Shown piece after piece: positions 30,601-61,054 of a stretch of DNA of 64,000 bases. The notes beneath the pieces were generated by a model. It was given only the letters and a program-made list of their open reading frames with translations. It was not told the DNA's origin and did no database searches. The stretch lies in IMG/VR virus record IMGVR_UViG_3300027374_000001; one strand, given 5' to 3'. The first letter of the stretch is position 1. Each line of letters starts with the position of its first letter. The stretch is from a virus. Lineage: Duplodnaviria > Caudoviricetes. The position numbers and the translations under genes are program-made.

Positions 30601-30831
30601 GAAGTAATTTAAATATCTCGGCATGTGTTCACGCATGATATTACCGTTATAACATCGTTTCATAGAAAGCGAAAAGGCATTCAGATTAGTATCATCTAAA
30701 TTATAATATTCTGCTACTGGTAGTAGCATGAATCCTTTGCAACTTCTAAAAATGATGTCATCTTTGGTTGGTACCCATTCATCTACACGTGGAGGTTTAC
30801 TTATGTCTCCATAGTACATTCCTCGTATCAT
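27635..30831 (-). CDS. Probable sigma-like promoter-specificity subunit of the non-virion RNA polymerase (AR9 gp226/phiKZ gp68-like), spliced from 3 exons, ~504 aa
   Basis: Exons 30831-29929, 29475-29458 and 28228-27635 join in frame: ...SKRDED|QNSEFD|RYESFIVKQNESLYLQNK... The splice structure is well supported. The family call rests on size, context and recalled similarity and needs an HMM check. Confidence 0.6.
28229..29457 (-). mobile_element. Group I intron 2 (1229 nt) with homing endonuclease
   Basis: Exon ends in U and intron ends in G. Core elements AATCAGCAGCAAG, GTTCAACGACTA and GATATAGTC present. P1 pairing CGAU/GUCG. Confidence 0.85.
28498..29304 (-). CDS. Intron-encoded HNH homing endonuclease (I-HmuI-like)
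   Basis: YIISNYGRI, HRLIAYVFVPN and EVNHKDG...NLEW...NMIH motifs; C-terminal SKLT/SKFT helical DNA-binding repeats. Confidence 0.9.
   Translation of the reverse strand: MVMPSQEQAIYPEIWIRLYLYIYGLQQHYIISNYGRIFNEKTATFLPKNQSIDYDYTTIRLTFIDGHAECFLLHRLIAYVFVPNSTGDYTLEVNHKDGIKGHSWAWNLEWIDTRGNMIHTINHNLVALGESRSNSKLTNSQVIRICELIESGKTNAEIINAIGTDLRKGDLQNIRNGHCWSHISKNYDFSNAATKSKFTAEQIHTICKYFQNHGTKKSYREVLVHLGIDVTKLSSNEMDNYNAAIGLIRDKKSYKNICNLYDYDNAIN
29476..29928 (-). mobile_element. Group I intron 1 (453 nt, no ORF)
   Basis: Exon ends GAU and intron ends G. Core elements ATTGCTGGAA, CCAGCAGCGAAG, GTTCAACGACTA and GATATAGTC present. Confidence 0.85.
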
Positions 30832-30951
30832 GTTTTCTTATCCTTCCTTTTATTGATTTTTCTCTAGCGATACTTTCAAGTCATTTAAATTCTCCTTTCT
30901 ATATACTTATGCAGCTTATTACGATGTTTCAGGAAGGGTATTTTTGTATTT

Positions 30952-31485
30952 TTAGAATGTGCATTTATCTATTACCTCAAATATATTGCCGGACTTTATC
31001 ATTGCATCTATTGCCTTATCTGGTTCGGTAACACCACAATCTATTAATGCTTCACGCAGCTCAAAATAGTTTACTTCTTTCCGTTTATCGATTTTTGCAT
31101 CATAGTGGTCAATGAAATCAGCAATGCCATCTATTAATCCGTCGGTAATGCTGACCTTCTCCAATTCTTTTGCCAGTTTAGGATCGATAGAACTCCTCGG
31201 TATAATGAGATTTGGTCCCGACATTTGACTTGTTCCATACAGTAAACGACTAGAGGTCGATATGGAACACAAATGGCAAAGAGTTTCTGTTGAACTCGTA
31301 TTTGAGAATTCAGAATTCTTTGTCATGCCTTCATACATTTCACTGATAGCGTTTCCGGTTCCCATACCAAGTTCATAGCCATAGTTATAACTATCCTTTT
31401 CTGATGCATATATCATTCCTCTTACCAGACTACACGCATCATCATGTTTTGCTTCCTGAGTGTTTCTCTTAAAAATTCCTAACAT
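30952..31485 (-). CDS. Hypothetical protein (paralog of 31879..32277) with GMxY motif
   Basis: LVRGMIYASEKDSYNYGYELG and LIIPR shared with the paralog; AGGAG RBS. Confidence 0.6.
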   Translation of the reverse strand: MLGIFKRNTQEAKHDDACSLVRGMIYASEKDSYNYGYELGMGTGNAISEMYEGMTKNSEFSNTSSTETLCHLCSISTSSRLLYGTSQMSGPNLIIPRSSIDPKLAKELEKVSITDGLIDGIADFIDHYDAKIDKRKEVNYFELREALIDCGVTEPDKAIDAMIKSGNIFEVIDKCTF

Positions 31486-31498
31486 TTTGTTTCCTCCT

Positions 31499-31867
31499 TT
31501 AAAGTACATGATTTTTTCTTTGTAATTTATCCTCGCCTATAATATATAGGTTAGAACCATCCGTAACTCGTAATTTTACTAGCCGTAAACTTTCAACTAA
31601 AGAATCTAAGCTTCCCAAATAAGTTCCATATTCTATAAATATTTCCTTTATAGAATCGGCGATTTTTTCCCATTTATTATTGGCATACTCATTGTCAAAG
31701 TATACTCCTTTTAAACGGAATGTAGTTTTACGAGGAAAGAATATCCATTCTCCGGTATCGTATTCGCATCTTATGACAGAACCATTGTTGAGACGTATAA
31801 ATAGTTCTTCTATAATAATTTCTTTTTTATCATTCGAGCCGTGTGTGAATTCGCCTTCAAATATCAT
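31499..31867 (-). CDS. Hypothetical protein
   Basis: ORF with AGGAGG RBS within an operon. Confidence 0.55.
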   Translation of the reverse strand: MIFEGEFTHGSNDKKEIIIEELFIRLNNGSVIRCEYDTGEWIFFPRKTTFRLKGVYFDNEYANNKWEKIADSIKEIFIEYGTYLGSLDSLVESLRLVKLRVTDGSNLYIIGEDKLQRKNHVL

Positions 31868-31878
31868 TGGTTTCCTCC

Positions 31879-32277
31879 TTATTTCTTAATAACTTTATCT
31901 TTTTTCAACGAATCTACTATTTCATCGAGTAATCCTCTAGAAATATCTGCGAATTTTTTCAGATCATAGTCTAGATCTGCATTAAGATATTCCCGGGGGA
32001 TTAATAATACCTCGCCCATAGTATCACTCTTAGTAATACTACTTATAGCATCGGCATACATAAGCTTTAGAAATGTCTCTTCTGTAAACGAGTCAGATTC
32101 TAATATAGCTTTCATTGAAGAGCTATTCTCTGATGCCCTACCCAATACCTGCTTTCCTAACTCTCTGCCTTCACAATACGTCTTGACCTCATCAGAATAT
32201 ATCATTCCTCTTATCAAATCATTCTGTTGCACATAATAATCAGTTGGCGCTCTCATCATAATTGGTGATATAAACAT
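31879..32277 (-). CDS. Hypothetical protein with GMxY motif
   Basis: LIRGMIYSDEVKTYCEGRELG; AGGAGG RBS; early-type motif at 32311. Confidence 0.6.
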   Translation of the reverse strand: MFISPIMMRAPTDYYVQQNDLIRGMIYSDEVKTYCEGRELGKQVLGRASENSSSMKAILESDSFTEETFLKLMYADAISSITKSDTMGEVLLIPREYLNADLDYDLKKFADISRGLLDEIVDSLKKDKVIKK

Positions 32278-32355
32278 AAAATTATCCTCCTTTGTATTAA
32301 TGTCAAAAGTATAATATATTATCAAAAGAAAAAATAAAAAGAGCAGTAAAATTAA

Positions 32356-32904: not shown

Positions 32905-32954
32905 TTTGAACAACCCTTTCCTTAGCACACTATTAGACCATAATATTTTAAGAA

Positions 32955-33722: not shown

Positions 33723-33810
33723 AAGATTATACCTCCTCTTATTTCAATGTAAAATAGATGAGAAAAAATAAATTTAGGCACTAGGAATTACTCCTAGTGC
33801 CCATGCTGTA

Positions 33811-34311: not shown

Positions 34312-34998
34312 TCATTCCTCTTCAAAATCATCATAATACATACCAAGTATTAAAGGATGAACCGTATTTTCTTGTAACGAAATTTGAGTGTAATTAAATT
34401 TAAAATAATCAAATCTTGTTCTCAACGCCTTATATTCCTCTTCAGTATACATTCCAGAAAAACAAGTATCTCCGTTGGGTTTAATAGCTTCTATAACAGC
34501 ATATGCCAAATCAGGTACTTCATTATTAAATGAACCTTTACTTCCTATACCCCTCACACCTTCAAACCCAGCGTATTGATACGAATCCAACCCATAAGCT
34601 TGGGATATCAGAAACAATACATTAGGATCTACATTTTTACAAAAACTCATATTTACATCTAAATTAGCTTTCCCTTGACCAATATTGTAGCAGCACATTA
34701 TATCTTCAAAATTAGCATTAAAGTTGGTTTTCAAATCCTCATTAAACACTACTGAGAAATCGTCATAGTTATGCCCCATACTTTTGTATTTATTCCACAG
34801 ATTATCTTTTTCTGTGGAGTAATATGATACAAAATCAATCCCAGCCCTCTTTAACAAGAATTCTAAATTTGGATCGTTGTTTATATTGATAATACTATCT
34901 CCAACTTCAATAGAATTTTGAATGTCGTCTAACAATTTTTGTATATTATCTTCGGGTCCTTGAAAACTCACATCACAAGTAAATTCTGGTGCTATCAT
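34312..34998 (-). CDS. Divergent YubB/DUF1281-like ferredoxin-fold protein
   Basis: Paralog of 35012..35752 (NIQKLLDDIQ vs NVQRLYDDIQ; shared ILGMYY). Confidence 0.5.
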   Translation of the reverse strand: MIAPEFTCDVSFQGPEDNIQKLLDDIQNSIEVGDSIININNDPNLEFLLKRAGIDFVSYYSTEKDNLWNKYKSMGHNYDDFSVVFNEDLKTNFNANFEDIMCCYNIGQGKANLDVNMSFCKNVDPNVLFLISQAYGLDSYQYAGFEGVRGIGSKGSFNNEVPDLAYAVIEAIKPNGDTCFSGMYTEEEYKALRTRFDYFKFNYTQISLQENTVHPLILGMYYDDFEEE

Positions 34999-35011: not shown

Positions 35012-35752
35012 TTATTTTATTTCTATATCATAAACCATCCCTGGTATGCAATTAATGTCTTCATAATACATTCCAAGTATACAAGGTATTTGATCTGGTC
35101 CTATTGGTATTATACTTGTCCATAGTTCTTCATTATCCGAGTTGGCTTGTCTAAACTGTTTTTCTGCATTTTCTACATCTGCTCTGTTATTAAAACGCTG
35201 TTCGACCGACTTGTATTCATAGTTATTTCCTTCTTTCCATTCTGTATAACCGCTAAGAATAAATTGTTCTTCTGGAAGTGGGAGAAAACCATAAGCTCCC
35301 TTTGATGCGAACCCGCACCCCGGCTCAAAAGAAACATATTCATATATGGCTTCATATTTCTTAGATATTAAAAGTAACAGTGCAGGGTCAAGGTCCCAAG
35401 CAGACTCCAGTTGAACTTCAATTCCCATCATGCCATATTCATCGTAAATGACATCGCAATCAATAAAATATGCTCTTAAATTTGTCTGCCTTAAATAGGT
35501 TGCGAAATTTAAATCTTCATCTGTGATGTCTTTGTTTTTATCTTTAATAAGTTTAGCGTTGCGCTCATTTTCAGTACTAAGATAGGCACTAGGCGAAAAT
35601 CCGGTCTTTTCAAGGAAATACCACATATTGACAGTATTCCAAATTCTTTTATTACGATCATATTGTAATGCCGATTGAATATCATCATACAATCGCTGTA
35701 CATTTTGTTTTGCGCCATAAAATCTAATCTTTCCACAGCACCAATTTGGCAT
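35012..35752 (-). CDS. YubB/DUF1281-like ferredoxin-fold protein
   Basis: MPNWC start, ESAW and FEPGCGF motifs; two C-terminal GMxY motifs. Confidence 0.6.
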   Translation of the reverse strand: MPNWCCGKIRFYGAKQNVQRLYDDIQSALQYDRNKRIWNTVNMWYFLEKTGFSPSAYLSTENERNAKLIKDKNKDITDEDLNFATYLRQTNLRAYFIDCDVIYDEYGMMGIEVQLESAWDLDPALLLLISKKYEAIYEYVSFEPGCGFASKGAYGFLPLPEEQFILSGYTEWKEGNNYEYKSVEQRFNNRADVENAEKQFRQANSDNEELWTSIIPIGPDQIPCILGMYYEDINCIPGMVYDIEIK

Positions 35753-35811: not shown

Positions 35812-37551
35812 TTAGTTACCGTCTTCGTCTCTATAGACATTTTGATTTGCCGATGGGAGTAGACACTGATTTGCTGTAACCATGATAGTTATAACTTTAC
35901 TTATAGCTTCAAGAATAGCTATATCTGTCATCGCGGAAGTTAACACTTTTCCATCATACCTCATAGTTGCAAGGTTAAGAGGCATATATTTGTCTTGTGT
36001 TGTCCCGCAATAATCATGTGCCTCGTCCTCATCTACACAGGTTTTATAAAGATTTGTTATCGTTTCCTTATATGCTTCATAGATAATATTCTCTATATTT
36101 CTTTCTAACCGATGTTCTTTCTCATCAAACTTTTTCACTTCAATAATGGATCGTAATCCTTCGACATTAGCACCGTAACCTACGCCATCTTTCATTGCGG
36201 ATCTACAGTTGAGAACGGCATCTTCGACGGAAGCTCTTAATGAATCTCTATCTGTTACTGTTACTCCTCCGATAAAATACTCTACGAAGTTAACTTGAAG
36301 AGAATTAAGTCTCCTCTTAAGGTTACCAGTAACATTAGCATCTTCCATGTTATCCTGAGCATTCTTTAATTCCTTTTTACAGAAATTAATCAATCCCTTA
36401 TATACAGAAGAATAAACTTCCTTTCCGTTTTCGTCGGTTTCAAACATTTTCCCTGGCCTGATAAAGCTTGAATTAGAGATATCGGAAACAAATTCTTCTG
36501 CGGTTCCACAGAATTTATATACATTTTCTATGGTGGCAGCTTTTCCTTCCTCTACATCTCTCTTATATATATCTGGATTAATATACTTTCCGATTTCTGG
36601 AATACCGCATAATGTAACAATATCATCTAATTGAAATTGTACAGTGTTTGATTGAGCCACAATACAAAGCGGCGGCTTTGGAATTTTATTCTCATCAGCA
36701 CTGTACATCATCAACTCAATATCCTTGAGCCATTGCTGAATGTCTCGTGTAACACTTGGCACCAGAATAACTGTAGGAACATAGGAATCATAATCTCCAT
36801 TCATCATTGGCTGCTGAATGTTATAGTATATGATTGCCTTGAAAAGCTCTACCATATTTTCATCATCAATATTATCTTTGAATGAATAGATGCGCGGTTT
36901 ATGAATCTTGCATTTACCATCCGGGGTGTTGATAAACGCCGGAGAAGCAAACCCTTTACCAAGAGTTAAACCATCGTACTCTTTTAGACGATGATGTTCA
37001 TCCATAGATGCTGCTACGTCAATGAAAACTCCTCTTCCGAACTTTTGATAGATCTGAGTAATCGCATTGGAAACATCTTCATTCCCATTTGTAGAAGTCA
37101 TGCATATATCATAGATGTCATCAATAGTACATTCTCTTGTATTAGTTTTAATCTTTTCAATCATGCTATTAACAACCTTTTGAAACAGGCGTATAAGCAG
37201 ATACGGTCTAGCGTGATTTTCTTTTTCAATATCACACAGTCCTTTAAATATATTGTAAGCCAGGATAACTGCCGAAGTGGTTCCGTCTCCTACGGACTTT
37301 ACAATGTATCTGGTGATCTCCTTCATCTCTTTCTGAATACCCGCTTCAATAGGTCGATAAAACTGAATATCTGATATTACATCGTGTCCATCCTTAGTAT
37401 ACGTATTAGCGTACCCCTGCTTAAGTATCTGGGTATTAGAACCATAAGGACCCGCAGTTTGAGAAACAGCATCGGCAAGTACCTGAAGTGTATCTAATTG
37501 CACCTCTCTTAATTTATTTTTTGAAACAATATTAGTATATCTCATATCCAT
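35812..37551 (-). CDS. groEL: Phage chaperonin (GroEL/Cpn60-like)
   Basis: TAGPYG, TKDG, VGDGTTSAV, EDAVL and DGVGYG motifs. Confidence 0.93.
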   Translation of the reverse strand: MDMRYTNIVSKNKLREVQLDTLQVLADAVSQTAGPYGSNTQILKQGYANTYTKDGHDVISDIQFYRPIEAGIQKEMKEITRYIVKSVGDGTTSAVILAYNIFKGLCDIEKENHARPYLLIRLFQKVVNSMIEKIKTNTRECTIDDIYDICMTSTNGNEDVSNAITQIYQKFGRGVFIDVAASMDEHHRLKEYDGLTLGKGFASPAFINTPDGKCKIHKPRIYSFKDNIDDENMVELFKAIIYYNIQQPMMNGDYDSYVPTVILVPSVTRDIQQWLKDIELMMYSADENKIPKPPLCIVAQSNTVQFQLDDIVTLCGIPEIGKYINPDIYKRDVEEGKAATIENVYKFCGTAEEFVSDISNSSFIRPGKMFETDENGKEVYSSVYKGLINFCKKELKNAQDNMEDANVTGNLKRRLNSLQVNFVEYFIGGVTVTDRDSLRASVEDAVLNCRSAMKDGVGYGANVEGLRSIIEVKKFDEKEHRLERNIENIIYEAYKETITNLYKTCVDEDEAHDYCGTTQDKYMPLNLATMRYDGKVLTSAMTDIAILEAISKVITIMVTANQCLLPSANQNVYRDEDGN

Positions 37552-38276: not shown

Positions 38277-39026
38277 CTATTCGAGGTCTTCTATTGCCGA
38301 TGACCTCATACTTCTTCCCTGCTCGGAAGAATTATTATTGAAGAATGACTGCTGCGAAGATGATCGAGATGTAGTCCCCTGCCTGTATTCGATTCCAAGT
38401 TTACTCATAACCAGATCAAGTTTAGTTTCTTGACGGGTCTGAGTAAATGACTGAGCATCCATAATCGCATAAGCCGGCCCGCCGCTCATAGCTTTATAGT
38501 ATTCCTCAAGAAGATCACAAAGCTGTTCTACTTCTGTATCATCATAATACACTTTCTTATGTTTAGAATCTTCCTGGCTGAAGTTTTCAATACCATAATG
38601 GTGCTTTTTCTTGAATTGATACATATACGTAGACAGCACCTCTCCATTTTCATTGAGCTTATTGATTACAAGGCACGGACCATCGATACCGAATTCTTCT
38701 CCATTGCAGAATCGAATAAGTCCATCTTTTCCAGAGTTAACTCCTCCATTCTTGATTTCGCCACTCTGAACTCTTCTTATTTCCTTAAGTAGAGTCCTGG
38801 CCTTTGTATGTGTGATCCATATAGACGCTTCATTCTTATGGTCATATGCTATTTCGCTGCCGTTATCCTGTTTAAGAGGTGCGATTGCAATTTTAAGCAT
38901 ACGATTGATAAATGTATAATTTATCGATGATGGATCCATTCCTGTACTGTTTCCGGCGTTATAAGATGAAAATACTACCGGCCCATTATTGTTTCTTGAA
39001 TTGTTGTCTGCATTACCTAATGCCAT
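38277..39026 (-). CDS. Hypothetical protein, possibly single-stranded DNA-binding
   Basis: Beta-rich core, S/N/Q-rich linker and acidic tip (IEDLE); early-type motif at 39093. Confidence 0.45.
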   Translation of the reverse strand: MALGNADNNSRNNNGPVVFSSYNAGNSTGMDPSSINYTFINRMLKIAIAPLKQDNGSEIAYDHKNEASIWITHTKARTLLKEIRRVQSGEIKNGGVNSGKDGLIRFCNGEEFGIDGPCLVINKLNENGEVLSTYMYQFKKKHHYGIENFSQEDSKHKKVYYDDTEVEQLCDLLEEYYKAMSGGPAYAIMDAQSFTQTRQETKLDLVMSKLGIEYRQGTTSRSSSQQSFFNNNSSEQGRSMRSSAIEDLE

Positions 39027-47132: not shown

Positions 47133-49675
47133 TATTTGTCACCACCTTTAATTTCTGGTAAATCTCTTCCTTGCATCTTAATACCATATTTGATACGCTG
47201 CTTTTCTCTCTGCAATTTCTTTTGATAATTAAGCAGGAATCTATATTGATTCATATCTCCTTCGCTTTCGGCAAGCTGTAGTTGTTTCTCTACTACTTGA
47301 AGCTCTGTATCTATTTCATCATAAATAAGCATTCTTTCTTTATGATTTAAAGACTTAGATACAGCAAATCCGCCTAATGCAGTTATAGCGGCTCCTACAG
47401 GTCCAGTAAATGCACCAACGGCCCCAACTGCTAATGCTGATTTGATTATTTTTGAAAATGAAGGTATAATTGAACCTTTAATAATTGCTTCTCTTCTGTC
47501 TGAGGTTAAAGCTCTCTGAAATCCTTTACTCAAACCCGATGCGGCAATATCAATATTTCTCCATACCGCTTGCTCTTTAGATTTAAGCTGTTTAGCTTTA
47601 TTCTTAAAATTCACAAATGCAAGCTTAAGAGTATTAAGGTCAAATGCTTCGTTCACAACACGTATTGCTTCTTTCATAGCATCTCTTTGCAAAAAGACTT
47701 TAGCATATGTATTTGCTTCTAATATATCTCTGTCTTTAGAGTCCAATAAGATTGTGCATATCGTATTTGTTATAGAGTCTTTGCTCTGCTTTAATTGTAA
47801 ATCTATAGTAGAATAAAATTGGTCTCTTAGTTCCTTTGGGCAATTAGAAAACAGCCCACTGCATTCTGTCAAAGATTCCCCTACAAGATACGATGGAATA
47901 TTAGGTATAAATACTGAAGAGGTTTCTTCTATATCTATTACTGCTTCCAATAATCTTCCGGTAAATGATACTGCTTCTTCAAAGCTAAAATCTCCAAAGT
48001 CGAAATCATCATTATCATCGCCAAAATCAAATTCATCATCATCTTTTGAAAGGCTACCAATAGATGCATCTGATGCTTCGTCGTCTTCATCATCTATGTC
48101 AAGGATATAATCAGCTAATTTCTTGATACCTTTATCAAGGCAAGCGATATATTCCTCTGTGGCTTTTTTCTCTTTATCACTTTTAAGCTTATCCTTTTTC
48201 TTTACAGCAGCTTCTTTTTCTTTCTTAAGATGTCTCATTAATTGCTTGGCCTTATTGATATTTAACTTCATTCCTATTAATTTCATAATTAGCATGGATA
48301 TACCAGCAATAACTGGACCATATGGTAGTAAAGCTGCTATACAAATATATATCATGCCTCTACCAAGAGCTAATAAATCTGGAGCTTCATCTAATAAAGC
48401 CTCTGGCGATTTTGTCAGCGCTTTATTGATTAATGCCTTAAAAGCAGATGGAGTTTTCTTCTGGCTAGTTTTAAAAGACTCTATATCTTTCTTGAAATTA
48501 TCGTTATCCAATAAAGCCTCAAGAAGATCTATCTGTTCTTCATCTTCGTCATCTTTTAATGCCTTTGCCTCTGTTATGGATGAAACAAATTCTGACATGG
48601 TAACTAAATCATTATTTTTGATTACCGTAGATACAGTAATATCTCCTTCGTAATCTTTAATTCTATCCTTTATTTCCAAATCTATTTGTTTATCCAATTG
48701 ATAGCAAATAAATTCACTATTTATTGAACCTATAAGTGGAAGAGTGCAGAATGCCTTTATTCCATTCATTATATCAGAATCAGGAATAGTTTCTTCTTGG
48801 CATAATTTCTTAAATCTATCCATAAAACCAGATGCCGTCTTTTCTGTAGTTATACGAGGCATAGATTCAATTAAACTTGTCATCTCCGCACTTTCACATT
48901 GTACTGCTATATTATTTATAGCATTTACAAATGTACAACCAAATTCATTATCTCTATTATATATCATAGTATGATATGCTGGAATAGAATCTTTATCAAT
49001 AAATAGGTTGTTTTCTAATACATCAATATACCCATTGGCATCTTTATCAGTAATTATAGGACTTCTAGACAAAAAATAGCCGACAATATAATCCGTAACC
49101 TCATTTACATTTTGTTCATTTCCAGATGCTAAGAAAGAATAATTTATATTTTCTATAGCAATATTCAGTTTAGCCTTACTAGAAATATCATAAGTATCTA
49201 TTAATGCGCATAATTCATTTACAGTATGCTTTAAGTCTCCATATTTATTTTCTCTTATGACTTTGTCAAAATTAAATCTTTTTTGTATCTTTGCTCTGTT
49301 TCTTAAAACACGATCACATGCTTCTAAAACATTGCATCTCTCAATTAATTCATTTTTAGAATCACTATCAAATTTTGAAGATGATATTTTTTCTATAGCA
49401 TTCTCTAAATTTACTATCCCATCCATTAAATTTAAAATGGTATCAGTAAGTCCATCCCTGTCTTCTTCTTTAAGAAGATTAACTAAATCTAAAGTCTGAT
49501 TAAACTTAATATCAGGAGAATCGCTTACTCCGAATTCAACAAATAGTTTTACATTAGTATGAGTTGGGTTTGCTGTTAGAGCGCCATAATTTAATACATA
49601 TCCACCGTTCCCATACACATTTCCAACATCAAATTTCCTGGACAATACCTTTCTAAATGGTATTACTGATTTCAT
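47132..49675 (-). CDS. Large inner-head/ejection protein candidate
   Basis: Many [ILV]xE sites (ITEA, LLEA, ILEA, VNEA), two Gly/Ala hydrophobic hairpins, late promoter 49708..49719. Confidence 0.55.
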   Translation of the reverse strand: MKSVIPFRKVLSRKFDVGNVYGNGGYVLNYGALTANPTHTNVKLFVEFGVSDSPDIKFNQTLDLVNLLKEEDRDGLTDTILNLMDGIVNLENAIEKISSSKFDSDSKNELIERCNVLEACDRVLRNRAKIQKRFNFDKVIRENKYGDLKHTVNELCALIDTYDISSKAKLNIAIENINYSFLASGNEQNVNEVTDYIVGYFLSRSPIITDKDANGYIDVLENNLFIDKDSIPAYHTMIYNRDNEFGCTFVNAINNIAVQCESAEMTSLIESMPRITTEKTASGFMDRFKKLCQEETIPDSDIMNGIKAFCTLPLIGSINSEFICYQLDKQIDLEIKDRIKDYEGDITVSTVIKNNDLVTMSEFVSSITEAKALKDDEDEEQIDLLEALLDNDNFKKDIESFKTSQKKTPSAFKALINKALTKSPEALLDEAPDLLALGRGMIYICIAALLPYGPVIAGISMLIMKLIGMKLNINKAKQLMRHLKKEKEAAVKKKDKLKSDKEKKATEEYIACLDKGIKKLADYILDIDDEDDEASDASIGSLSKDDDEFDFGDDNDDFDFGDFSFEEAVSFTGRLLEAVIDIEETSSVFIPNIPSYLVGESLTECSGLFSNCPKELRDQFYSTIDLQLKQSKDSITNTICTILLDSKDRDILEANTYAKVFLQRDAMKEAIRVVNEAFDLNTLKLAFVNFKNKAKQLKSKEQAVWRNIDIAASGLSKGFQRALTSDRREAIIKGSIIPSFSKIIKSALAVGAVGAFTGPVGAAITALGGFAVSKSLNHKERMLIYDEIDTELQVVEKQLQLAESEGDMNQYRFLLNYQKKLQREKQRIKYGIKMQGRDLPEIKGGDK

Positions 49676-50650: not shown

Positions 50651-51418
50651 ATGGCAGGATATGCAAATAATATGTCTAAGTTATTAGACAAACTTGAGAT
50701 AAGACTAGGCACTAAACCCTTGAATTTACCAGATGAAGTGAAAAAAAATAAATGGGCTAATGTAATAGAAAATGATACACTTGTTACATTCTCTAGATAT
50801 TTCCCATACTTATTTAATTATGAATTTGGACCAGATGATAGAGTTGATGGGTGGTACTATATAGATGAGGATTATCTTGGGGACGCTAAAGTTTTAGGCA
50901 TTAGAGATTTAAGCTGGGAAGATTTTGCTGTGGATTCTTTGTCTATTCAGCAAAATTCTGGATATGGTATTTATGATTTTTTAGGAATGAACTATGGAAT
51001 GGACGACGTGGCTCTATTGCAAATGAGAGCAGATCACATGTCTCTGTTTAACAATGGAATATACCCAGAATTTGATCCTCCAAATCGTATAAGGCTAGTA
51101 AGTACCACTAGTCGTGATTTGGGATTGAATATGAGAAAATTCCATATAGGGATATTCTTAGAGCATAACAAGAATCTAACTACAATATCTCCAACGCAAA
51201 TGGAAACGTTCGAAGCATTGGCACAAGCAGATGTAGCAACCTTCTTATACCGATTCTTAAAGTATTACGATCAGCTTCAAACTGTATATACCACTATAGA
51301 TCTTAAACTTCAAGACTTAGAGGCAGAAGCCGGAAAACGAGATGAAGTTATACAACAAATAAAAGAAGGATATGTTTCTGCTGCTAATAAGAACCAACCT
51401 ATGATATTTACAGTATAA
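50651..51418 (+). CDS. Putative head-completion/neck protein
   Basis: Co-transcribed with the protease; TLVTFSRYFP pattern; family call uncertain. Confidence 0.45.
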   Translation: MAGYANNMSKLLDKLEIRLGTKPLNLPDEVKKNKWANVIENDTLVTFSRYFPYLFNYEFGPDDRVDGWYYIDEDYLGDAKVLGIRDLSWEDFAVDSLSIQQNSGYGIYDFLGMNYGMDDVALLQMRADHMSLFNNGIYPEFDPPNRIRLVSTTSRDLGLNMRKFHIGIFLEHNKNLTTISPTQMETFEALAQADVATFLYRFLKYYDQLQTVYTTIDLKLQDLEAEAGKRDEVIQQIKEGYVSAANKNQPMIFTV

Positions 51419-52235: not shown

Positions 52236-52237
52236 TT

Positions 52238-52591: not shown

Positions 52592-53308
52592 CTACATATC
52601 GTCTAATCTATCAAAAAATGACTTATTAGAATCTTTCTTTGGTAGTTCTCTAATTTTAATATTGTTTTCAGGTTGCGGTTGGTTTAAACCATAATTAGGA
52701 TTTTCAAAAGTATATAGATTTGTTCCAAATTCTGGGCGACCAACGTAATTAATTAAATTTTGCGCAGCCGCATACATATCTATTTGGTTCATCAGATAAA
52801 CAAATCCAGCAAATGCATTAATATGAATATCACTATATGTCTCAGTATTTACTAATGTCATTCTTATACCTTGTGACTGAACTTTCTGCTCGTCTTCAAT
52901 TATAATGGGTTCGAGCATCATTTCTTTTTTACATGTCAACCCATCTATTATGCATTTCTTTCTGTCTGTAATTATAAGATTATCTTTTTTAATAGCAAAC
53001 GTTCCATCACTAAACCATCTGAACGCTTCATTTATCTTCATCCTTAATAATAGAATATCCTTTATTGATATTATAACACTTTCCTTATTATGAAGATGGT
53101 CAATAGAAATATAATAATTAAAAGATCTTCTTATTGTATATAAAGTGCCAAAGTTGCTTTCATAGCCATATTCTTTATGAAAATGCTTTCTTTCATTATT
53201 ATATTTATTTGATAAACCGACAACCATTCTAACTACAATACTTTTTCCAAGCCAACAGAGGTCGTCGGATATCTTATCATAATCAAGGTATGTCATTCCC
53301 TGTTCCAT
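52592..53308 (-). CDS. Hypothetical early protein with N-terminal GMxY
   Basis: AAGGAGGT RBS; early-type motif at 53349; begins MEQGMTYLD. Confidence 0.6.
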   Translation of the reverse strand: MEQGMTYLDYDKISDDLCWLGKSIVVRMVVGLSNKYNNERKHFHKEYGYESNFGTLYTIRRSFNYYISIDHLHNKESVIISIKDILLLRMKINEAFRWFSDGTFAIKKDNLIITDRKKCIIDGLTCKKEMMLEPIIIEDEQKVQSQGIRMTLVNTETYSDIHINAFAGFVYLMNQIDMYAAAQNLINYVGRPEFGTNLYTFENPNYGLNQPQPENNIKIRELPKKDSNKSFFDRLDDM

Positions 53309-53359: not shown

Positions 53360-54979
53360 CTATTCATCATAAACCATCCCCCGAGTTAGTCCATAGTCAT
53401 AAATCATCCCGGGAGTTAAACCACAATTATATACCATTCCAGGTACATTCCAATTATAATAATTACGTTCTATGAATTCACGTATAGACCCAGCGTATAA
53501 ATCTAATAATTTACAGTCAATAAAATCATCAGTCATTATCATTTCTCTACAATCAGTAGCATATTTTAAGAATATAGGTTTCTTGAATCCATAATATTTT
53601 CTACATTGCGGAAATGATGTATCGACTAGTTCTATATATTCTGTATCGGAATCTCTGGTTCTCCCAAGAGTTTGTCTAGCTAATACTCCGGACTTGAATG
53701 GCTCAGCTAAAAGTATGGTTAATACTAACCCTTTAATATCTATTCCAGTACCCGCTGATTTGGTTGTGGACAGCATGATTCTTTTCTCTGTGTTTCTTTT
53801 TCGTTCCTCACTTGATACCAACGTGCTTAGAATACCAATATCGTTTTCTAACCATGAATAATTATGCACCATCCATTCATATACTTTTTGTATAGCTGCA
53901 TTGGTGCCTATATACATTAAACACTTGCCACCATTATTTGTTCTTTTGATAGCTATATCCATCATTATTCTTAATATGCTATAAAACTTAGGCTTAGAAA
54001 CCAGATAATCTACATACTTATTTCTATCTAAACCATATTGATTTTTACAGCTAGACATCTCTATAGCAGATGGATTAGATGAAAATTTAATAGCAGTGTA
54101 TCTAGTATGTGGATCAGTCTCTTCATCAAATAAATCTATTTGTGGAACATTCTTAAAGCTTAATTGATAAATCTTATCTTCATCTGTAGACGAACGTAAA
54201 GCTGTAGCAGTAAGATAGTAATTTTTATACACATTGGTAAAGAAATCTATCATTAACAGATTTTCAAAATTTTGATGTGCTTCATCGAATATCTTGATGC
54301 CTACCTTTAAATGCTTAACAAATTCTCCAACGGCTTCCCATCCGTTTGTCTTGGCATAACTTTCCAACGTTCCGTGCGTGATTAGATATATAACACCATC
54401 ATCTGAATCTTTGCTCAACAGCCTTTTAATATTAATAGAACCAGATACAATCTTGACCTGTTTATTTGTCAAATTGGTTATATTTAAGATTTCCTCTTTC
54501 CACTGTTCAATTAAATTTGTGGAGTACATAATTATCAAAGCCTTCATACGCAATATTGCTATTGTAGATATAGCAACATACGTTTTACCCTTCCCTGTGT
54601 TAAGATTTAATGATAACTGGCTTTTTGTTGCTGTAGACCTGTATTCTCCCCTTCCAACCATAAATCTCAGAGCTTGTTCCTGTACTTCGTCTCTTGGCAT
54701 TTTCTTTACTCTAAAATCGTTATATCTATCATATTTATATGCTTCATTCTTATGAATAATTGCTGTAGTATTTAATATAGACTCAAGATACCATATATCT
54801 ATCCCTCTTGGAAGGTAAAGCTTTTTGTTTTCCTTATCATAATAAATACCAAAATACCCATATGTCGTATAACTTACAGTAACTGGTATTCTTATTTTAA
54901 AATTATTTTGAAGTGTTAGACAACTGTCCCACTCGTAATCACTAATTACAATAGAAGTATTAAAAACGTCTACTTTCAT
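53360..54979 (-). CDS. SF2 DNA helicase (UvsW-like)
   Basis: NTGKGKT, FDEAH, TAT, GTGIDI and QTLGRTR motifs. Confidence 0.92.
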   Translation of the reverse strand: MKVDVFNTSIVISDYEWDSCLTLQNNFKIRIPVTVSYTTYGYFGIYYDKENKKLYLPRGIDIWYLESILNTTAIIHKNEAYKYDRYNDFRVKKMPRDEVQEQALRFMVGRGEYRSTATKSQLSLNLNTGKGKTYVAISTIAILRMKALIIMYSTNLIEQWKEEILNITNLTNKQVKIVSGSINIKRLLSKDSDDGVIYLITHGTLESYAKTNGWEAVGEFVKHLKVGIKIFDEAHQNFENLLMIDFFTNVYKNYYLTATALRSSTDEDKIYQLSFKNVPQIDLFDEETDPHTRYTAIKFSSNPSAIEMSSCKNQYGLDRNKYVDYLVSKPKFYSILRIMMDIAIKRTNNGGKCLMYIGTNAAIQKVYEWMVHNYSWLENDIGILSTLVSSEERKRNTEKRIMLSTTKSAGTGIDIKGLVLTILLAEPFKSGVLARQTLGRTRDSDTEYIELVDTSFPQCRKYYGFKKPIFLKYATDCREMIMTDDFIDCKLLDLYAGSIREFIERNYYNWNVPGMVYNCGLTPGMIYDYGLTRGMVYDE

Positions 54980-55038
54980 ATAATCACCCTTTAATCGAAA
55001 AATAATAGAGGTGGCACGTATGCACCACCTCAACACAT

Positions 55039-55932: not shown

Positions 55933-58095
55933 TTATAGCTTGAGGATATTGCTATAATTCACATTATCCTTTCCCATCCTCATTATTCCTACTGATTCTA
56001 CCGGGAAATTCTTAAGGTTGTAATTTGCTATATCTACATAGTCTATAAGCCTTGTTATCCAAACCGGAGTTGCTACATTTCTGGGAACAGCTATAGTATC
56101 TATTTTACCTTTGAGTACTTTAGATAAATCTGAATTCCCTTCAATAATTGTTTTTAATCTTTCGTATTCTTCCGGAAAATCATCTCTAATAGTTTCTACA
56201 GTGGTTGGATTAATGATTACCTTTACCACATCCAAATTGTTTTTAGCTGTTAGATCAATAGCCTCAAGTTCTGGGTCTTTAACTTCATTCCATATCAACG
56301 ATGCCTTGATTCCTTGTATTTTGAGTGGGTCGTCATATTTATTCATTGCTTTAAAACTTACCGGTTTATAAAATGTCTTTTCTCCATTTCTCAAAGATTC
56401 AAAAATCTTTGATTCAAATATAGCTAGGTCTTTAATTACTTTTACTTGATCTATTGTTTCTGGTTTAAGAATATCTTCATATAGTATTCTTTGCAGTTCT
56501 GATCTTGTCTCTGGTGCATATACATTTTTTTTCATTGTTAATCCGGTTATAGCACAGGATTCAGACTCTGGAACCATATTGCCTTCTTGTACCTCTACTT
56601 TAGCTGCATATGCTTTCTTAACTAAGGTCATCAATACTCTCCTAAAAGTAAACTCATTCTTGATAAACATAAGAGTTTTCCTTGTAGGATCATAGGAATT
56701 GCCCATCTTTGTATGTCCTTCAATATATTCATTACATAAAATTCCACAACAATGCCCTATAATATTAATTATAGAATATCTAAGATTATCCTGCGGTATA
56801 ACAACCATTGGATTTATCATTCTTTCTACTTCTATTACAGACTGGTCTTGAAAATTATAATCGTAATCTGGGTCTTCATATACCATTCCTCTTATTAGTT
56901 CTGGATTCCCCTGCCAATCATTTTCTACATATTCCATACCTTTTACAAAGACTTTCTTAATTTCCATTGGTATGTCTTTTACCTTGTCTAGAGTGTACTT
57001 ATAGAACCTATCGAAACAAACTATTGTAGAATCTGTATCTGATATGAGAGATACGTTCTTTATCATATGCGTATTTCTATCTATCCTATCAAGAATTTGA
57101 TAATTATAGAACACGTATTCTCTTAAAAGATCGCAGAATGTATCCATTTCTACTGATATCTCTTCTGGTACTTTATTCGGGTCAAGATACGGAACTTTCA
57201 TTGTCTTGAGAAGATAAATTAACGCTTTACTCATTACTTTATTATCCAAGAATGCATACAGGTTATTCTTATAATAAATCCTATTAAGATCTTCTTGAGA
57301 ACAATTTGAAAGTTGCTCAAATACTATGTCTAAATCTCTCTGTGATGGAATCCATTTAATTTTCCCTCTTCTGAAATCTCCACATGTAAGTATTATCTTA
57401 TTTAATACTTCATATATTCCTATATCTCTATCAAGAATATCTTTGTCGTCATAGTGCCTATTACCCCTTTCTGTTCTGACATTATCTATAAATGTAATTA
57501 TCTCTTCAAGAGAAGCAAACTTTACGTTATTCGACAGAAAGGCTTCAAAAAACATAATTGCTGAAGATATATAAGATCTTCCTTGGAAAGTTATACTAGC
57601 AGCAACGTGAAGATTATATAATACACAAGCAACACTTCCTAGCGCACCATAAATAGCATTAGTATCAACCTTGGCCAGCACTTGCAACAGATCATAATTT
57701 TCAAAATCTTCCGAACCCTTAATAAAGGTATTTCTAATTTGTTTAAACTTATCTCTATTAGTCATAAACATGTATATCAGTTTGGTTAATGGATTAAGCA
57801 CCCCGGAATCATGACGTTTAAACATAACTCCCCAAGCTGTTATGATAGGTTGCTTTTGATAAATGTAATCTGTCAATTCAGATAAAAGCATATCTACGGT
57901 TTTCTCTGAATAGTTATTATAGATGGTAGCAGGCTCTGCTTTGTACCTTTTCTCTATACTGTAGTCTAATGCTTTGTCAATATCATAATTAGTTAAATCT
58001 GGAAAATTCAATTTTATCATTCTCTTAAGTGCTATTTTATATCTAGATTGGATCCATTGATTTTTCTCTAATTCTTCTTTTACTGCAGTTACCAT
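55933..58095 (-). CDS. Family B DNA polymerase, C-terminal subunit (split phiKZ-type)
   Basis: Motif B KVDTNAIYG and motif C SDTDST present, plus KKAYA. Exonuclease and motif A are absent, as in split phiKZ-like polymerases. Confidence 0.85.
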   Translation of the reverse strand: MVTAVKEELEKNQWIQSRYKIALKRMIKLNFPDLTNYDIDKALDYSIEKRYKAEPATIYNNYSEKTVDMLLSELTDYIYQKQPIITAWGVMFKRHDSGVLNPLTKLIYMFMTNRDKFKQIRNTFIKGSEDFENYDLLQVLAKVDTNAIYGALGSVACVLYNLHVAASITFQGRSYISSAIMFFEAFLSNNVKFASLEEIITFIDNVRTERGNRHYDDKDILDRDIGIYEVLNKIILTCGDFRRGKIKWIPSQRDLDIVFEQLSNCSQEDLNRIYYKNNLYAFLDNKVMSKALIYLLKTMKVPYLDPNKVPEEISVEMDTFCDLLREYVFYNYQILDRIDRNTHMIKNVSLISDTDSTIVCFDRFYKYTLDKVKDIPMEIKKVFVKGMEYVENDWQGNPELIRGMVYEDPDYDYNFQDQSVIEVERMINPMVVIPQDNLRYSIINIIGHCCGILCNEYIEGHTKMGNSYDPTRKTLMFIKNEFTFRRVLMTLVKKAYAAKVEVQEGNMVPESESCAITGLTMKKNVYAPETRSELQRILYEDILKPETIDQVKVIKDLAIFESKIFESLRNGEKTFYKPVSFKAMNKYDDPLKIQGIKASLIWNEVKDPELEAIDLTAKNNLDVVKVIINPTTVETIRDDFPEEYERLKTIIEGNSDLSKVLKGKIDTIAVPRNVATPVWITRLIDYVDIANYNLKNFPVESVGIMRMGKDNVNYSNILKL

Positions 58096-58098
58096 AAT

Positions 58099-58218
58099 TT
58101 AATCCTCCATGTGTTTTACAGTTCTAATAAGAATAAATGCTGCTCCTAATTGTCCGAACAATCCTACAATGATATGAAATATAACAGTCGTTATAAAATT
58201 AGTAATTCGATCACTCAT
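58099..58218 (-). CDS. 39-aa TM peptide
   Basis: GGAGGAG RBS; MSDRITNFITTVIFHIIVGLFGQLGAAFILIRTVKHMED. Confidence 0.5.
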   Translation of the reverse strand: MSDRITNFITTVIFHIIVGLFGQLGAAFILIRTVKHMED

Positions 58219-58366
58219 GTTTTCTCCTCCAATATAATAATATATTATTTAATTCAAAGTTCTGGAAAATGTAATTTTCTTATATACGCATATATAAGAA
58301 ACATATTGGTAATGTATATGGGTTGTAGTCCTTTACATAATTAAAAGAATAAGGAGGAAATTATAA

Positions 58367-58822
58367 ATGGGTATTTTTATCACAGGTTCAATTGCAGAAA
58401 CCATTTCAGATGTATTTAAGAATCCTAATAAGATATTTGAATCTTCTCTTATGATGGAGGCGATGAGCTGGACAGATGAGCAGATCAAAGAGTTTTGTGC
58501 TCCGGGAGGAATTGGAGAAGAGCTGGTAAGCGAAGGAAAGCTGTCCAAGAAGACAATCATGCGTTTGTCCAAGAAGGATGATTTGAGTAGACGTACAAAG
58601 AAGATGTGTCTTGATCTCGCTAGAGAAAACAATGACCCATTATGGGATCAGCTGGCAAAGAATAGAATCAAAGAAAGAGAGCTCATTGCAAAGATCGTTC
58701 ACAAGTACAGTAGCAAGGGAAGCCGCCTCGCAGTGCAGGCTCAGAAAGATTTCATCAAAAATTCAAGACTTCCGAAATCTTTCATGAGAGCCGGCGGAGA
58801 AGAAAGGGTTTCAAAAGATTGA
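58367..58822 (+). CDS. Probable virion head protein
   Basis: Late promoter 58300..58311, own terminator, IFES/MMEA/VSEG putative cleavage sites and a basic domain. Confidence 0.55.
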   Translation: MGIFITGSIAETISDVFKNPNKIFESSLMMEAMSWTDEQIKEFCAPGGIGEELVSEGKLSKKTIMRLSKKDDLSRRTKKMCLDLARENNDPLWDQLAKNRIKERELIAKIVHKYSSKGSRLAVQAQKDFIKNSRLPKSFMRAGGEERVSKD

Positions 58823-58948
58823 TAAGTATAATAAGCAGCATAGGGCATGGGATAGAGTTCCCATGCCCAAATTTTTGTTTCTATTATATATTATAAAAAA
58901 GAACATGATGCGAAACTTTATATTAATACAATAAAGGAGAGATACTAT

Positions 58949-61054
58949 ATGGAGGCACTATACGGATCAAATTTACAAAACTTTAAGAACTATGGGGTCT
59001 ATGTTCCTTTGGTTAAAAATGGAAATATCCAAATCTTTACAAAGGATATTAATAAGGACAACATTGACTCTCATTTCTATTCTATACTAAATATTCTTAG
59101 AGATGGAATAGAAACGGATTATGTACAGCATATGGCAATAAATATAATGTTTGCCGATAATGTGGATGTAACCTTATCAATATTTGATTATATGCTTAAT
59201 CTTATGATGTGGACGATGCCGGCAAAAACAGATGAGCAAATTACATCATATTATTTATTCTTTGACGACGTGTTTAATAAGCATCGTATTAAAGAATATA
59301 TTGATACCAAGTTTTTAAATAAAAACAGATCTAGGATATCAAATAAAAAATTATGTAATATTATAGACGATACTCTGTATAAACTTAGATACATTGATGA
59401 ATTTTCATTATATCTTTGCAACACCATCAATGATGAGGATACTATAGAGTTAATGAATGTGAACCAAGAATTTTATGATTGTGTTCACGCAGACCTATCA
59501 AAAACTCCAATAGAAGATGTGAAGAATGTGGGAATGGCCATAACCAATAAAGCCATTAATATCATGAAGAATTCTGAACATTGTCTGGGGAACTCATTTG
59601 CTGTGGGAGAAGGCATCAATCCTAAGCAATTTAGAGAGTTTGCCATTAATATTGGTACAGTTCCAGATGGGGATGGCGGTGCTTACCCCCATATAATAAA
59701 TTCTAGTTTCATAAACAAAGGGCTCAGTACGTTATCTGATATACTTCCAGAATCCGGTAAAGGAAGACAGGCTTTAATTATCTCTAAGAAAAATGTAGGA
59801 ACGTCTGGGGCTTTTGCTAGAATACTTGGATTAAACAACAGGGATACGAATCTTCACTCAAATCCTAATTATTCATGCGGCACAAAGAACTTCATAAAGA
59901 TTACTATATATAACGAAAAAGTATTAAAGATGTATAATAATCGGTATTATCGTTTTAGAGCCGATGGACCAGAAATGAAAATAAATTATCGTACCGATAA
60001 ACATCTGATAGGGCAAACTGTATTGTTTAGGAGCCCATGTACTTGTGCGTCTCATGCAAGAGGGGAAGGAATTTGTTATAGATGCTATGGCGACCTAGCA
60101 TATACAAATTACGATATAAATATCGGTACCATAGCAGCGGAGATACTATCATCAGAGTTAACACAAATGCTCTTATCCGCTAAGCATTTGCTGGAATCTA
60201 ATATCAAAAATCTCGATTGGTGTGATGAATTTTCTGATATATTTGATGTGAGTTATAACGCCATTCATATAAAAGATGATTTCGATTGTAAGAAATGGAC
60301 TCTAGAAATAGATACTGCATGTATGGATTTTGATGAAGAAGAAGAGGAAACTGTAAGATGGTTCAACGTGATAAGCCCAAAAGGAAAGGTTACTCAGATT
60401 TATCTAAAGAGTAATGATGAACTAATGCTTTCACAGGAGCTTTCTGATTTGGTTAAGTCTATGCCTGAGCCAACAGAAGGAAACTATATGATAGACATGG
60501 AGAAGCTAATAGACACAGATCTTTTCCTTGTTCATATTGCTAATAATGAACTTAGCGATACTCTTAACAAGGTTAAAGAGGTTATTAGCAAACTTCCAAA
60601 AGTAAATGGAATGACTAAAGACATTATTATTCAAGAATTTGTAAATGCAGTAATAAATGGCAATCTTTCTGTTTCTGCAGTTCATCTGGAAGTTATTATA
60701 GCTAATCAAATTAGATTAGGTCTTGATGACGATAAAGTTCTTGAAAATCCGGATTGGACCGATGAAAATGCAGAGTATGCATTGGTTAACCTCGATACTG
60801 CTTTGAAAAAGCATCCATCTATAACAGTAAGCTTAGAATATCAGAAAATTAGTAAGACACTGTATAATCCTTTGTCATATACCAAAACCGCTCCTTCACA
60901 GACCGATTTATATTTCATGCCTAGACCACAGGAATTTATGAATATGGAATCTCGCAAGGTGAAACTTTCTCCAGAAGAAGATGAAATGATAAAGGGTATG
61001 ATGTATATAGATGAAGAAGAAGAAATACTGCTTGCTCCGTCAAAAGATAAATAA
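58949..61054 (+). CDS. RNA polymerase beta-prime subunit, C-terminal half (probably non-virion RNAP)
   Basis: Bridge helix TSGAFARIL, zinc site RSPCTC...ICYRCYG, trigger loop IGTIAAEILSSELTQMLLSAKH; early-type promoter at 58887. Confidence 0.9.
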   Translation: MEALYGSNLQNFKNYGVYVPLVKNGNIQIFTKDINKDNIDSHFYSILNILRDGIETDYVQHMAINIMFADNVDVTLSIFDYMLNLMMWTMPAKTDEQITSYYLFFDDVFNKHRIKEYIDTKFLNKNRSRISNKKLCNIIDDTLYKLRYIDEFSLYLCNTINDEDTIELMNVNQEFYDCVHADLSKTPIEDVKNVGMAITNKAINIMKNSEHCLGNSFAVGEGINPKQFREFAINIGTVPDGDGGAYPHIINSSFINKGLSTLSDILPESGKGRQALIISKKNVGTSGAFARILGLNNRDTNLHSNPNYSCGTKNFIKITIYNEKVLKMYNNRYYRFRADGPEMKINYRTDKHLIGQTVLFRSPCTCASHARGEGICYRCYGDLAYTNYDINIGTIAAEILSSELTQMLLSAKHLLESNIKNLDWCDEFSDIFDVSYNAIHIKDDFDCKKWTLEIDTACMDFDEEEEETVRWFNVISPKGKVTQIYLKSNDELMLSQELSDLVKSMPEPTEGNYMIDMEKLIDTDLFLVHIANNELSDTLNKVKEVISKLPKVNGMTKDIIIQEFVNAVINGNLSVSAVHLEVIIANQIRLGLDDDKVLENPDWTDENAEYALVNLDTALKKHPSITVSLEYQKISKTLYNPLSYTKTAPSQTDLYFMPRPQEFMNMESRKVKLSPEEDEMIKGMMYIDEEEEILLAPSKDK

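Follow-up and report, generated by a model that had tools for sequence, protein, structure and literature searches.

A Short Lineage-Specific Peptide on Replication and Transcription Proteins of an AR9-Related Jumbo Phage as a Putative Docking Tag

Introduction

Why should a DNA polymerase, a helicase, RNA polymerase subunits and several small proteins of one phage, most of them unrelated to each other, carry the same short peptide G-M-x-Y? The question was raised by a stretch of 64,000 nucleotides (below, the window), which is the reverse strand of positions 62300-126299 of a single 129,475-bp IMG/VR virus record (IMGVR_UViG_3300027374_000001). An annotation made from the letters and open reading frames (ORFs) of the window alone (the sequence-only reading) had proposed that GMxY docks its carriers on a common phage hub, such as a sliding clamp, a scaffold or a phage-nucleus import machinery, or that it acts as a degron. 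The record is classed as linear and, given a CheckV completeness of 52%, is estimated to comprise about half of the ~250-kb genome of an uncultivated jumbo phage, whose replication and transcription genes are distant kin of those of Bacillus phage AR9/PBS1 (23-35% identity, tblastn). Our analysis suggests, with a probability of roughly 0.55, that GMxY is the lineage version of a co-evolving docking or localisation tag for the intracellular DNA machinery, which would be read by a common phage-encoded receptor.

Results

GMxY Is Enriched and Mostly Terminal

A six-frame scan of the window returned 17 GM.Y matches, 15 inside long ORFs, all between 30811 and 61006, and the positions given in the sequence-only reading proved to be exact. 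The 15 in-frame matches compare with 1.65 expected from the composition of the window proteome, in agreement with the one to two chance hits that had been estimated. None falls into the first 29.4 kb (9004 amino acids, tail and structural genes), as had been remarked for the 22-kb tail module. In the whole record 31 matches in 20 proteins were found against 3.4 expected, and 300 within-protein shuffles yielded 2.7 matches on average and never more than 9, so that the suspected enrichment holds against shuffled proteomes as well. GM.Y is the top enriched three-residue pattern of the record, the collagen-like GxxG fibre repeats being set aside.

The extended consensus reads [LM]-[IVT]-[RKP]-G-M-x-Y-[DE]-D/E, with acidic flanks. 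The impression that most copies are terminal was confirmed for the whole record, where 23/31 lie at most 45 residues from a terminus (binomial p 1.4e-6). Since the glycine codons in the tags follow genome-wide usage, the motif appears to be under selection at the protein level, as already supposed from the varied codons, and not to result from recent DNA copying.

Tags Lie in Extensions Absent From AR9

Except for those in the DNA polymerase, no tag lies in a region that can be aligned to an AR9 orthologue, and the AR9 orthologues have no such tagged tails. The alignment of the superfamily 2 (SF2) helicase to AR9 gp156 stops at residue 502, and the ~75-residue insertion that holds the polymerase tags is absent from AR9 gp152. 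An AlphaFold2 model of the helicase (mean predicted local distance difference test score, pLDDT, 82.6) has high confidence as far as residue ~526; residues 529-558, which contain three tags, have a pLDDT <50 and no secondary structure and are therefore predicted to be disordered.

Related Phages Carry Other Motifs at the Same Sites

More than 1000 homologues of the SF2 helicase occur in metagenomes, and the contigs that carry them reach 281 kb. Related loci were retrieved with the helicase alignment, a single RNA polymerase beta protein having retrieved none as query; the helicase tails were compared in 120 homologues and the surrounding genes in 80 IMG/VR loci. Homologue cores are 40-96% identical, and the C-terminal tails bear tandem short motifs that differ by lineage, for example LIRGVTY, LIRPFxY, LIKPFTI, NRAFSF, PLMTKI, KRLFEY and IQPMEF. 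Within one genome, one and the same lineage motif occurs at three sites, namely in the helicase tail, in the C-terminal tail of the beta' subunit of the non-virion RNA polymerase (nvRNAP) and at the N-terminus of p238, a protein encoded next to the helicase. The motif series comprises GMxY (here), G[VI]xY, KPFxI, (K/P)LFxKI, CPIEF, CVSF, AIxF, PAxI and EPMEF. Common triples were shared by the helicase and beta' C-terminal tails in 29/55 loci (permuted mean 16, p 2e-4) and by the helicase tail and the p238 N-terminus in 14/34 loci (5.5 in permutations, p 4e-4), and a matrix of own motif against those of other loci gave p ~0.001. In the helicase tree the dialects track clades and drift stepwise.

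Three complete relatives were taken for whole-genome comparison. One of them is G002 (256 kb), in which PA.I ranked highest when enriched patterns were sought blindly; refined to [LM][IV][IVT]PAx[IF], the motif marks 23 proteins, mostly at their extreme ends. A table of orthologues across four dialects revealed that the same orthologues are tagged, and at the same ends. The nvRNAP beta' C-terminal subunit (at its C-terminus) and the SF2 helicase are tagged in 4/4 dialects, DnaB and ligase in 3/4, and the table further includes the exonuclease part of the polymerase, SbcD, the gp226-like subunit and beta N. RNase HI homologues of ~245 amino acids (aa) carry the lineage motif ~30 residues from the C-terminus, and homing endonucleases carry the lineage tag in relatives L012 and G002. 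In the four dialects no tag was found on the three recognisable subunits of the virion RNA polymerase (vRNAP), GyrA, GyrB, UvsX or primase, nor on the RecD/Dda-like helicase, SbcC, GroEL, protease, portal, capsid or sheath; terminase is tagged in one genome only. Judged from these comparisons, GMxY is one dialect of a clade-wide tag system.

In terms of a short linear motif (SLiM) in the ELM sense, a GMxY core within an eight-residue consensus thus occurs on 17-18 non-homologous proteins, in disordered or accessible locations (the helicase being the carrier modelled directly), and its position is kept among orthologues while its sequence co-varies across the proteins of each lineage. The conservation in homologues, named as a check in the sequence-only reading, takes the form of a conserved position. 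Lack of enrichment, burial of the copies in folded cores and absence of conservation, each of which would have spoken against that reading, were not found.

Carrier Proteins and Tag Sites

The tag sites of this phage are collected in Table 1, together with neighbouring genes discussed below.

Table 1. Positions of GMxY sites and of selected neighbouring genes in the window (aa, amino acids; empty cells, no value given).
Feature	Position (strand)	Site in protein	Carrier or remark
MIRGMYY	30811..30822 (-)	N-terminus (residue 4)	334-aa protein 29827-30831, AR9 gp226 homologue
LVRGMIY	31408..31419 (-)	residue 31	185-aa protein 30952-31509, no assigned function
LIRGMIY	32197..32208 (-)	residue 40	148-aa protein 31879-32325, no assigned function
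ILGMYYDD	34333..34344 (-)	near C-terminus (residue 219/228)	protein 34312-34998, no assigned function
ILGMYYED + IPGMVYD	35030..35074 (-)	C-terminus, 11 residues apart	246-aa protein 35012-35752, no assigned function
MEQGMTY	53288..53299 (-)	N-terminus	p238 (52592-53308); conserved LDYDKISDD directly after the tag
VPGMVY, TPGMIY, TRGMVYDE*	53369..53440 (-)	C-terminal tail, three in tandem, 10-aa period	SF2 helicase 53360-55036
VKGMEY + IRGMVYED	56878..56940 (-)	inside ~75-aa insertion	polymerase part of divergent family-B DNA polymerase, 55933-58095
IKGMMYIDEEEE	60995..61006 (+)	C-terminal tail	nvRNAP beta' C-terminal subunit 58949-61054, AR9 gp154 homologue
GRGMIY	48347..48358 (-)	internal	847-aa head-region protein 47132-49675; chance match
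LGMNY	50984..50995 (+)	internal	255-aa virion protein 50651-51418; chance match
Tag	outside window	C-terminus	nvRNAP beta N
Four tags	outside window	C-terminus	nvRNAP beta C
Three tags	outside window	C-terminus	exonuclease part of DNA polymerase
Tag	outside window	C-terminus	DnaB
Two tags	outside window	N-terminal extension	NAD ligase
Tag	outside window	N-terminus	SbcD-like phosphoesterase (nuclease)
Tags	outside window		additional small proteins
Collagen-like tail-fibre gene	20191-22236 (+)		681 aa, G-x-x repeats
Thymidylate synthase gene	25536-26387 (-)		PF00303, E 2e-85
GroEL-type chaperonin gene	35812-37551 (-)		phrog_5725

The 334-aa protein, a homologue of the AR9 subunit gp226 that gives the nvRNAP its promoter specificity, matches phrog_25005 and, in tblastn, AR9 positions 194969-195724, and its orthologues in G002 and in a second complete genome (G003) are also tagged at the N-terminus. 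The triple tag of the helicase has a 30-nt period at the DNA level. Both tag sites of the DNA polymerase read G[V]xY in relative L011. The two sites that the sequence-only reading had listed as weaker hits do not belong to the series: GRGMIY lies in a conserved hydrophobic segment that reads VRVMLY in L011 and VRAGIL in L012, and LGMNY in a conserved segment that reads YGANY in L011 and SAGY in L012. Since neither site follows the lineage motif in relatives, we consider both as chance matches in folded segments, outside the tag system.

Several carrier genes are interrupted in the relatives G001, G002 and L012. In L012 and G002 an HNH gene separates two pieces of the DNA polymerase; the nvRNAP beta C frame stops abruptly and the tagged tail is found on a separate small ORF; and beta' N ORFs are interrupted within the conserved NRNPT segment. 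As in AR9, introns, inteins or inserted homing endonucleases appear to be the cause of these breaks.

The carrier p238 was modelled with a pLDDT of 86 and shows a Whirly/PUR-like fold. Its PDB matches are PBF-2, MRP1/2, Pur-alpha and StWhy2 (Z 7.4-8.2; Foldseek probability 0.92-0.99), and a 341-aa AR9 protein, most likely gp161, superimposes with a template modelling score of 0.66. From its model, p238 is most likely a phage single-stranded DNA (ssDNA)-binding protein, and its N-terminal tag switches with lineage. In the AR9 record (KU878088), gp007 (DnaB, 3583-5268) ends in KDSGIPF and the Whirly-like gp161 (133973-134998) in DDKDGGINF, so that both tips read D-[SG]-G-I-[PN]-F. They resemble the tip of the bacterial single-stranded DNA-binding protein (SSB) as well as the G-hydrophobic-x-aromatic core of the tag, and may represent an ancestral small version of the tag system.

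Genome Context

In tblastn, proteins of the record map to AR9 gp226, gp154, gp105, gp089, gp152, gp132, gp007 and gp002. The record encodes a divergent family-B polymerase (PF20286), split into an exonuclease part and a polymerase part, a divergent DnaB (PF20307) and a multisubunit RNA polymerase with split beta and beta' subunits and an AR9 gp226 homologue (phrog matches). The beta' N-terminal subunit of the nvRNAP was not found in this half genome. The gene order polymerase, beta' C, helicase is the same in AR9, and in the searched phage collection no cultured relative is closer than AR9 (~26-30% identity for DNA polymerase and helicase). Tail and fibre genes occupy positions 1-22 kb of the window, and the collagen-like fibre protein listed in Table 1 is the source of the strongest tripeptide enrichments of the proteome. 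The GroEL-type chaperonin gene adjoins the gp226/gp227-like genes, as in AR9.

The nearest cultured relatives, AR9 and PBS1, have uracil DNA. As a thymidylate synthase is present here, the uracil-DNA trait of these relatives, which goes with the lack of this enzyme, does not appear to extend to this phage; probably the clade lacks dU-DNA, or the enzyme makes a modified pyrimidine. Within the first ~24 bases of the window 23 positions differ from the corresponding bases of the record, and the rest is identical.

Search for a Receptor

The hubs named in the sequence-only reading were sought in the relatives. In G000-G004, of which three are 100% complete, the chimallin model PF25677 gave no match at E<=10; the model is built from Phikzvirus chimallins, so that a very divergent shell could escape it. 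A search with phiKZ gp69 for Imp1/PicA, a single sequence of low sensitivity, gave no match in G000-G003, and neither PF02916 (gp45) nor PF00712 (beta) detected a sliding clamp in the same genomes, divergent and host clamps being outside the reach of these models. Known clamp-binding peptides follow QL[SD]LF, QxxLxxFF or the T4 C-terminal peptides. The tag consensus [LM][IVT][RKP]GMxY[DE] has no glutamine anchor and no double aromatic and is therefore unlike the known clamp-binding consensus.

Three further proteins were rejected as hubs: RNase H, which might have been a counterpart of the RNase H-clamp (Rhc) protein, itself carries the tag and is a client; tubulin is absent from the complete genome G003; and GroEL is also present in AR9, which is without tags. 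The tubulin in question is a weak PhuZ/TubZ-like match (phrog_4733, E 3e-5) at L002:10424-11662:+, outside the window, and is kept in G001, G002 and G004.

The filter "present in the tag clade, not in AR9" leaves ~30 core families. Three untagged candidates among them occur in 27/27 complete genomes each and are absent from AR9 and phiKZ; since all three are universal in the clade, the phyletic filter cannot tell them apart. The first has a zinc-ribbon/helical core and a prion-like tail rich in Q, Y, M, G and P, and is single-copy in 32/32 tag-clade genomes. In this phage it has 256 aa, begins with an N/Y/G-rich stretch, shows a conserved C-x-H...C-x2-C and a conserved C-terminal TDNKQYxL, and is encoded outside the window at L001:12378-13148:+ (window-frame 113152-113922, - strand), and an identical protein is found on a 233-kb contig. 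The second is a protein-kinase-like enzyme of 475 aa (G002 L109:14609-16036:-) with an invariant G-T-N-R loop, K93, E107, D169...N177 and D190, after which come a Cys4 ribbon and a long charged tail. Its gene always adjoins one for a second prion-like protein, rich in Q, N, Y and M (G002 216043-216846), and belongs to the missing half of this phage. The third, a 249-aa protein encoded at 38277-39026 (-) of the window, has an invariant N-terminal MALG, a folded core and an N/S/Q-rich tail with SFF and the acidic tip AIEDLE, an SSB-like architecture. A complex prediction with the G002 versions of these candidates (kinase domain of the kinase-like enzyme, core of the zinc-ribbon protein and the 249-aa protein) and an N-terminus bearing three tags gave a score of 0.00, which counts neither way, as four chains and a short partner are unlike the conditions for which the tool is calibrated.

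Discussion

In its general form the tag reads hydrophobic-hydrophobic-[R/K/P]-[G/P/A/C]-hydrophobic-x-[aromatic or aliphatic]; its flanks are mostly acidic, and it lies in disordered N- or C-terminal extensions, often in two to four tandem copies. Its carriers are nvRNAP subunits, both DNA polymerase parts, helicases, ligase and RNase H, together with an SbcD-like nuclease, the Whirly-like putative ssDNA-binding protein and homing endonucleases, while virion and structural proteins are left out. The concerted re-coding of the motif within each genome favours one co-evolving binding site, and thus a common phage-encoded receptor. We infer that all tags would dock into one peptide-binding site on a single protein, that docking would concentrate or localise the tagged proteins where the phage replicates and transcribes its DNA, that tandem copies would add avidity, and that tag and receptor would co-evolve, giving rise to the differing dialects of related phages. 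Of the common hub proposed in the sequence-only reading, the modular tag on replication and transcription proteins stands, whereas clamp, chimallin and Imp1/PicA were not detectable in three complete relatives.

Several points weigh against a docking tag with a common receptor. The sequence searches of complete relatives for clamp, chimallin and Imp1 did not identify the receptor. Gyrase, UvsX, primase and the RecD-like helicase are DNA enzymes without a tag, so that recruitment of everything that acts on DNA is not the rule. A concerted change of the motif on ~20 proteins is hard to achieve and would need a receptor that tolerates intermediates. A receptor-free mechanism, in which the tags stick to one another or enter a condensate, may also account for the pattern, and the evidence is wholly computational and comes from uncultivated phages. 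A more far-reaching version, in which a large clade of jumbo phages uses the peptide as a private, rapidly re-coded postcode on ~20 proteins of replication, transcription and repair, and one phage receptor gates or scaffolds a non-chimallin replication compartment or factory, the re-coding being driven by conflict (e.g., by the exclusion of competitor or host proteins), is put forward only tentatively, as we would sooner bet against it.

The tag might instead be an import or translocation signal for a replication compartment without chimallin, into which each protein would need a signal of its own while drift would exclude foreign proteins. Indeed, every nvRNAP subunit and both polymerase parts own a tag and the virion-packaged vRNAP subunits never do, the tags are terminal and often tandem, the homing endonucleases of L012 and G002 are tagged, the quick lineage-specific drift would suit a password, and a tubulin-like gene is present in some members. 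Exactly such proteins are imported by nucleus-forming phages (PMC11087766; bioRxiv 10.1101/2024.03.27.586873). However, neither chimallin (PF25677) nor an Imp1/PicA homologue was found in the three complete relatives, and the PBS1/AR9 group was reported to be without chimallin (PMC10299810). Moreover, gyrase, UvsX and primase would need entry too, yet are untagged, the complete genome G003 has no tubulin, and no linear signal for the known phage-nucleus import was found in the literature, which makes an import signal unlikely.

Two of the untagged candidates lead to readings that we regard as improbable. The tag could dock substrates on the protein-kinase-like enzyme, which would then phosphorylate the replication and transcription machinery. 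The shape of the tag appears to resemble docking motifs such as those of cyclins (RxL) and of mitogen-activated protein kinases (MAPK D-motifs), i.e., [RK]-x-hydrophobic-x-hydrophobic. The universal presence of this enzyme in the 27 complete tag-clade genomes, its absence from AR9 and phiKZ and its invariant G-rich loop, Lys, Glu, D...N and D-F/Y-like residues would fit such a role, and its protein-atlas neighbours with a named family are kinases, although at chance-level scores (0.84-0.86). Binding is putative, at least two other proteins share the phyletic pattern, the docking motifs of known kinases show strong conservation instead of rapid drift, and no phospho-acceptor is conserved beside the tags.

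The zinc-ribbon protein with the prion-like tail suggests a client tag for a membraneless replication factory, in which the peptide would bind the zinc-ribbon/helical domain or enter the phase formed by the protein. Its single-copy presence throughout the 32 tag-clade genomes and its absence from AR9 and phiKZ, the second prion-like protein conserved beside the kinase-like gene and the multivalency suggested by tandem tags point in this direction. A sharply defined motif, on the other hand, speaks for a structured pocket and not for fuzzy sticker contacts, the interaction is putative and the phyletic pattern of the protein is not unique, and we would not expect this explanation to hold either.

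That the peptide is a degron or protease-recognition tag timing the turnover of early and middle proteins, the second suggestion of the sequence-only reading, is very improbable, and nothing in our analysis supports it. Exposed terminal hydrophobic peptides are typical degrons, and a 1002-aa core protein of the relatives contains a ClpP/crotonase-like domain; however, tandem amplification and strict conservation on essential enzymes suit destabilisation poorly, and the nvRNAP is needed late in infection (PMC7598289). Finally, the view that the matches arose by chance, from composition or from a repeat that DNA duplication had spread is refuted: ~3/31 matches are expected by chance and two were recognised as such, and the 30-nt period of the helicase tags would suit duplication, but the shuffles never exceeded 9 matches, the codons vary like genome-wide usage, and position-conserved, dialect-converted tags recur in dozens of lineages.

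Full-text literature searches returned no description of such a tag system. If one receptor reads the tag, the whole intracellular DNA machinery of these phages would be organised via a single transferable peptide, which would provide a handle on the replication organising centre of jumbo phages without chimallin, and the dozens of natural dialects would represent ready orthogonal peptide-receptor pairs. A motif on ~20 essential proteins that was re-coded in concert many times is an unusual evolutionary case. The tag also predicts function, as it would assign the unassigned carriers of 185, 148, 228, 246, 93 and 147 aa to the replication and transcription apparatus. Should the postcode version be true, a linear sorting signal would be known for the first time from a bacterial virus, and these phages would offer a natural case of a whole-proteome motif code that was changed many times.

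Comparison With Known Systems

A parallel already drawn in the sequence-only reading is T4, where the gp45 clamp is bound by peptides on gp43 polymerase, gp55 sigma and the gp33 co-activator (PMC2988020). There, too, short terminal peptides are found on replication and late-transcription proteins, and one hub couples both processes. The favoured docking tag agrees with this analogy in logic; in contrast to T4, no clamp gene is detectable here and the tag sequence is unrelated. Moreover, the tags described here are also N-terminal, often tandem and drift strongly between related phages, and their ~20 carriers include core RNA polymerase subunits, helicases and a putative ssDNA-binding protein.

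Disordered tails are a second parallel. The T7 gp2.5 protein has an acidic C-terminal tail that binds the gp5 polymerase, and a bacterial network is built around the C-terminal SSB tip DDDIPF. Likewise, the acidic C-terminal tail of the T7 gp4 helicase binds basic patches on gp5 (PMC12593628). The tags share with these tails a disordered acidic stretch that ends hydrophobic or aromatic, and such a tail is not confined to a single replisome protein. Unlike in T7, the polymerase itself is tagged here and cannot be the sole hub; unlike in the bacterial network, where the hub SSB bears the tail and the clients bear the pockets, many clients bear the tail here; and N-terminal and internal tags occur in addition.

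PIP-box and beta-clamp networks likewise bring many enzymes together through one linear motif, and serve the same kinds of clients (polymerase, ligase, RNase H, nucleases, helicases). Conservation of those motifs extends across the domains of life; the tag, in contrast, differs between sister clades. Rhc, a subunit of the chimallivirus DNA polymerase, also pulls down the nvRNAP (PMC13648698), so that in related phages with a multisubunit RNA polymerase a clamp-derived protein associates with both polymerases. The ~245-aa RNase HI of the tag clade differs in that it is itself a tag carrier.

Import into the chimallin phage nucleus via PicA/Imp1-Imp7 (PMC11087766; bioRxiv 10.1101/2024.03.27.586873; 10.64898/2026.09.21.753271) selects the same class of proteins, leaves out the virion RNA polymerase and depends on a phage-encoded, lineage-specific machinery. 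It differs in that no chimallin or Imp1 homologue was found here, and in that no linear import signal was found in the chimallivirus literature.

The eukaryotic SLiMs, such as the peroxisomal targeting signals PTS1/PTS2, nuclear localisation signals, cyclin RxL and MAPK D-motifs, are short, modular and transferable, and one receptor serves many cargos. The tag is similarly short, lies in terminal or disordered segments of unrelated proteins and has the [RK]-x-hydrophobic-x-hydrophobic shape. Whereas those motifs are near-invariant over huge distances, this one was re-coded repeatedly within one phage family. The principle that a SLiM docks its carriers to a hub is thus known; what is new is that as many as ~20 proteins are marked, that both termini are used, that tagging is restricted to the non-virion DNA machinery and that re-coding took place repeatedly and in concert.

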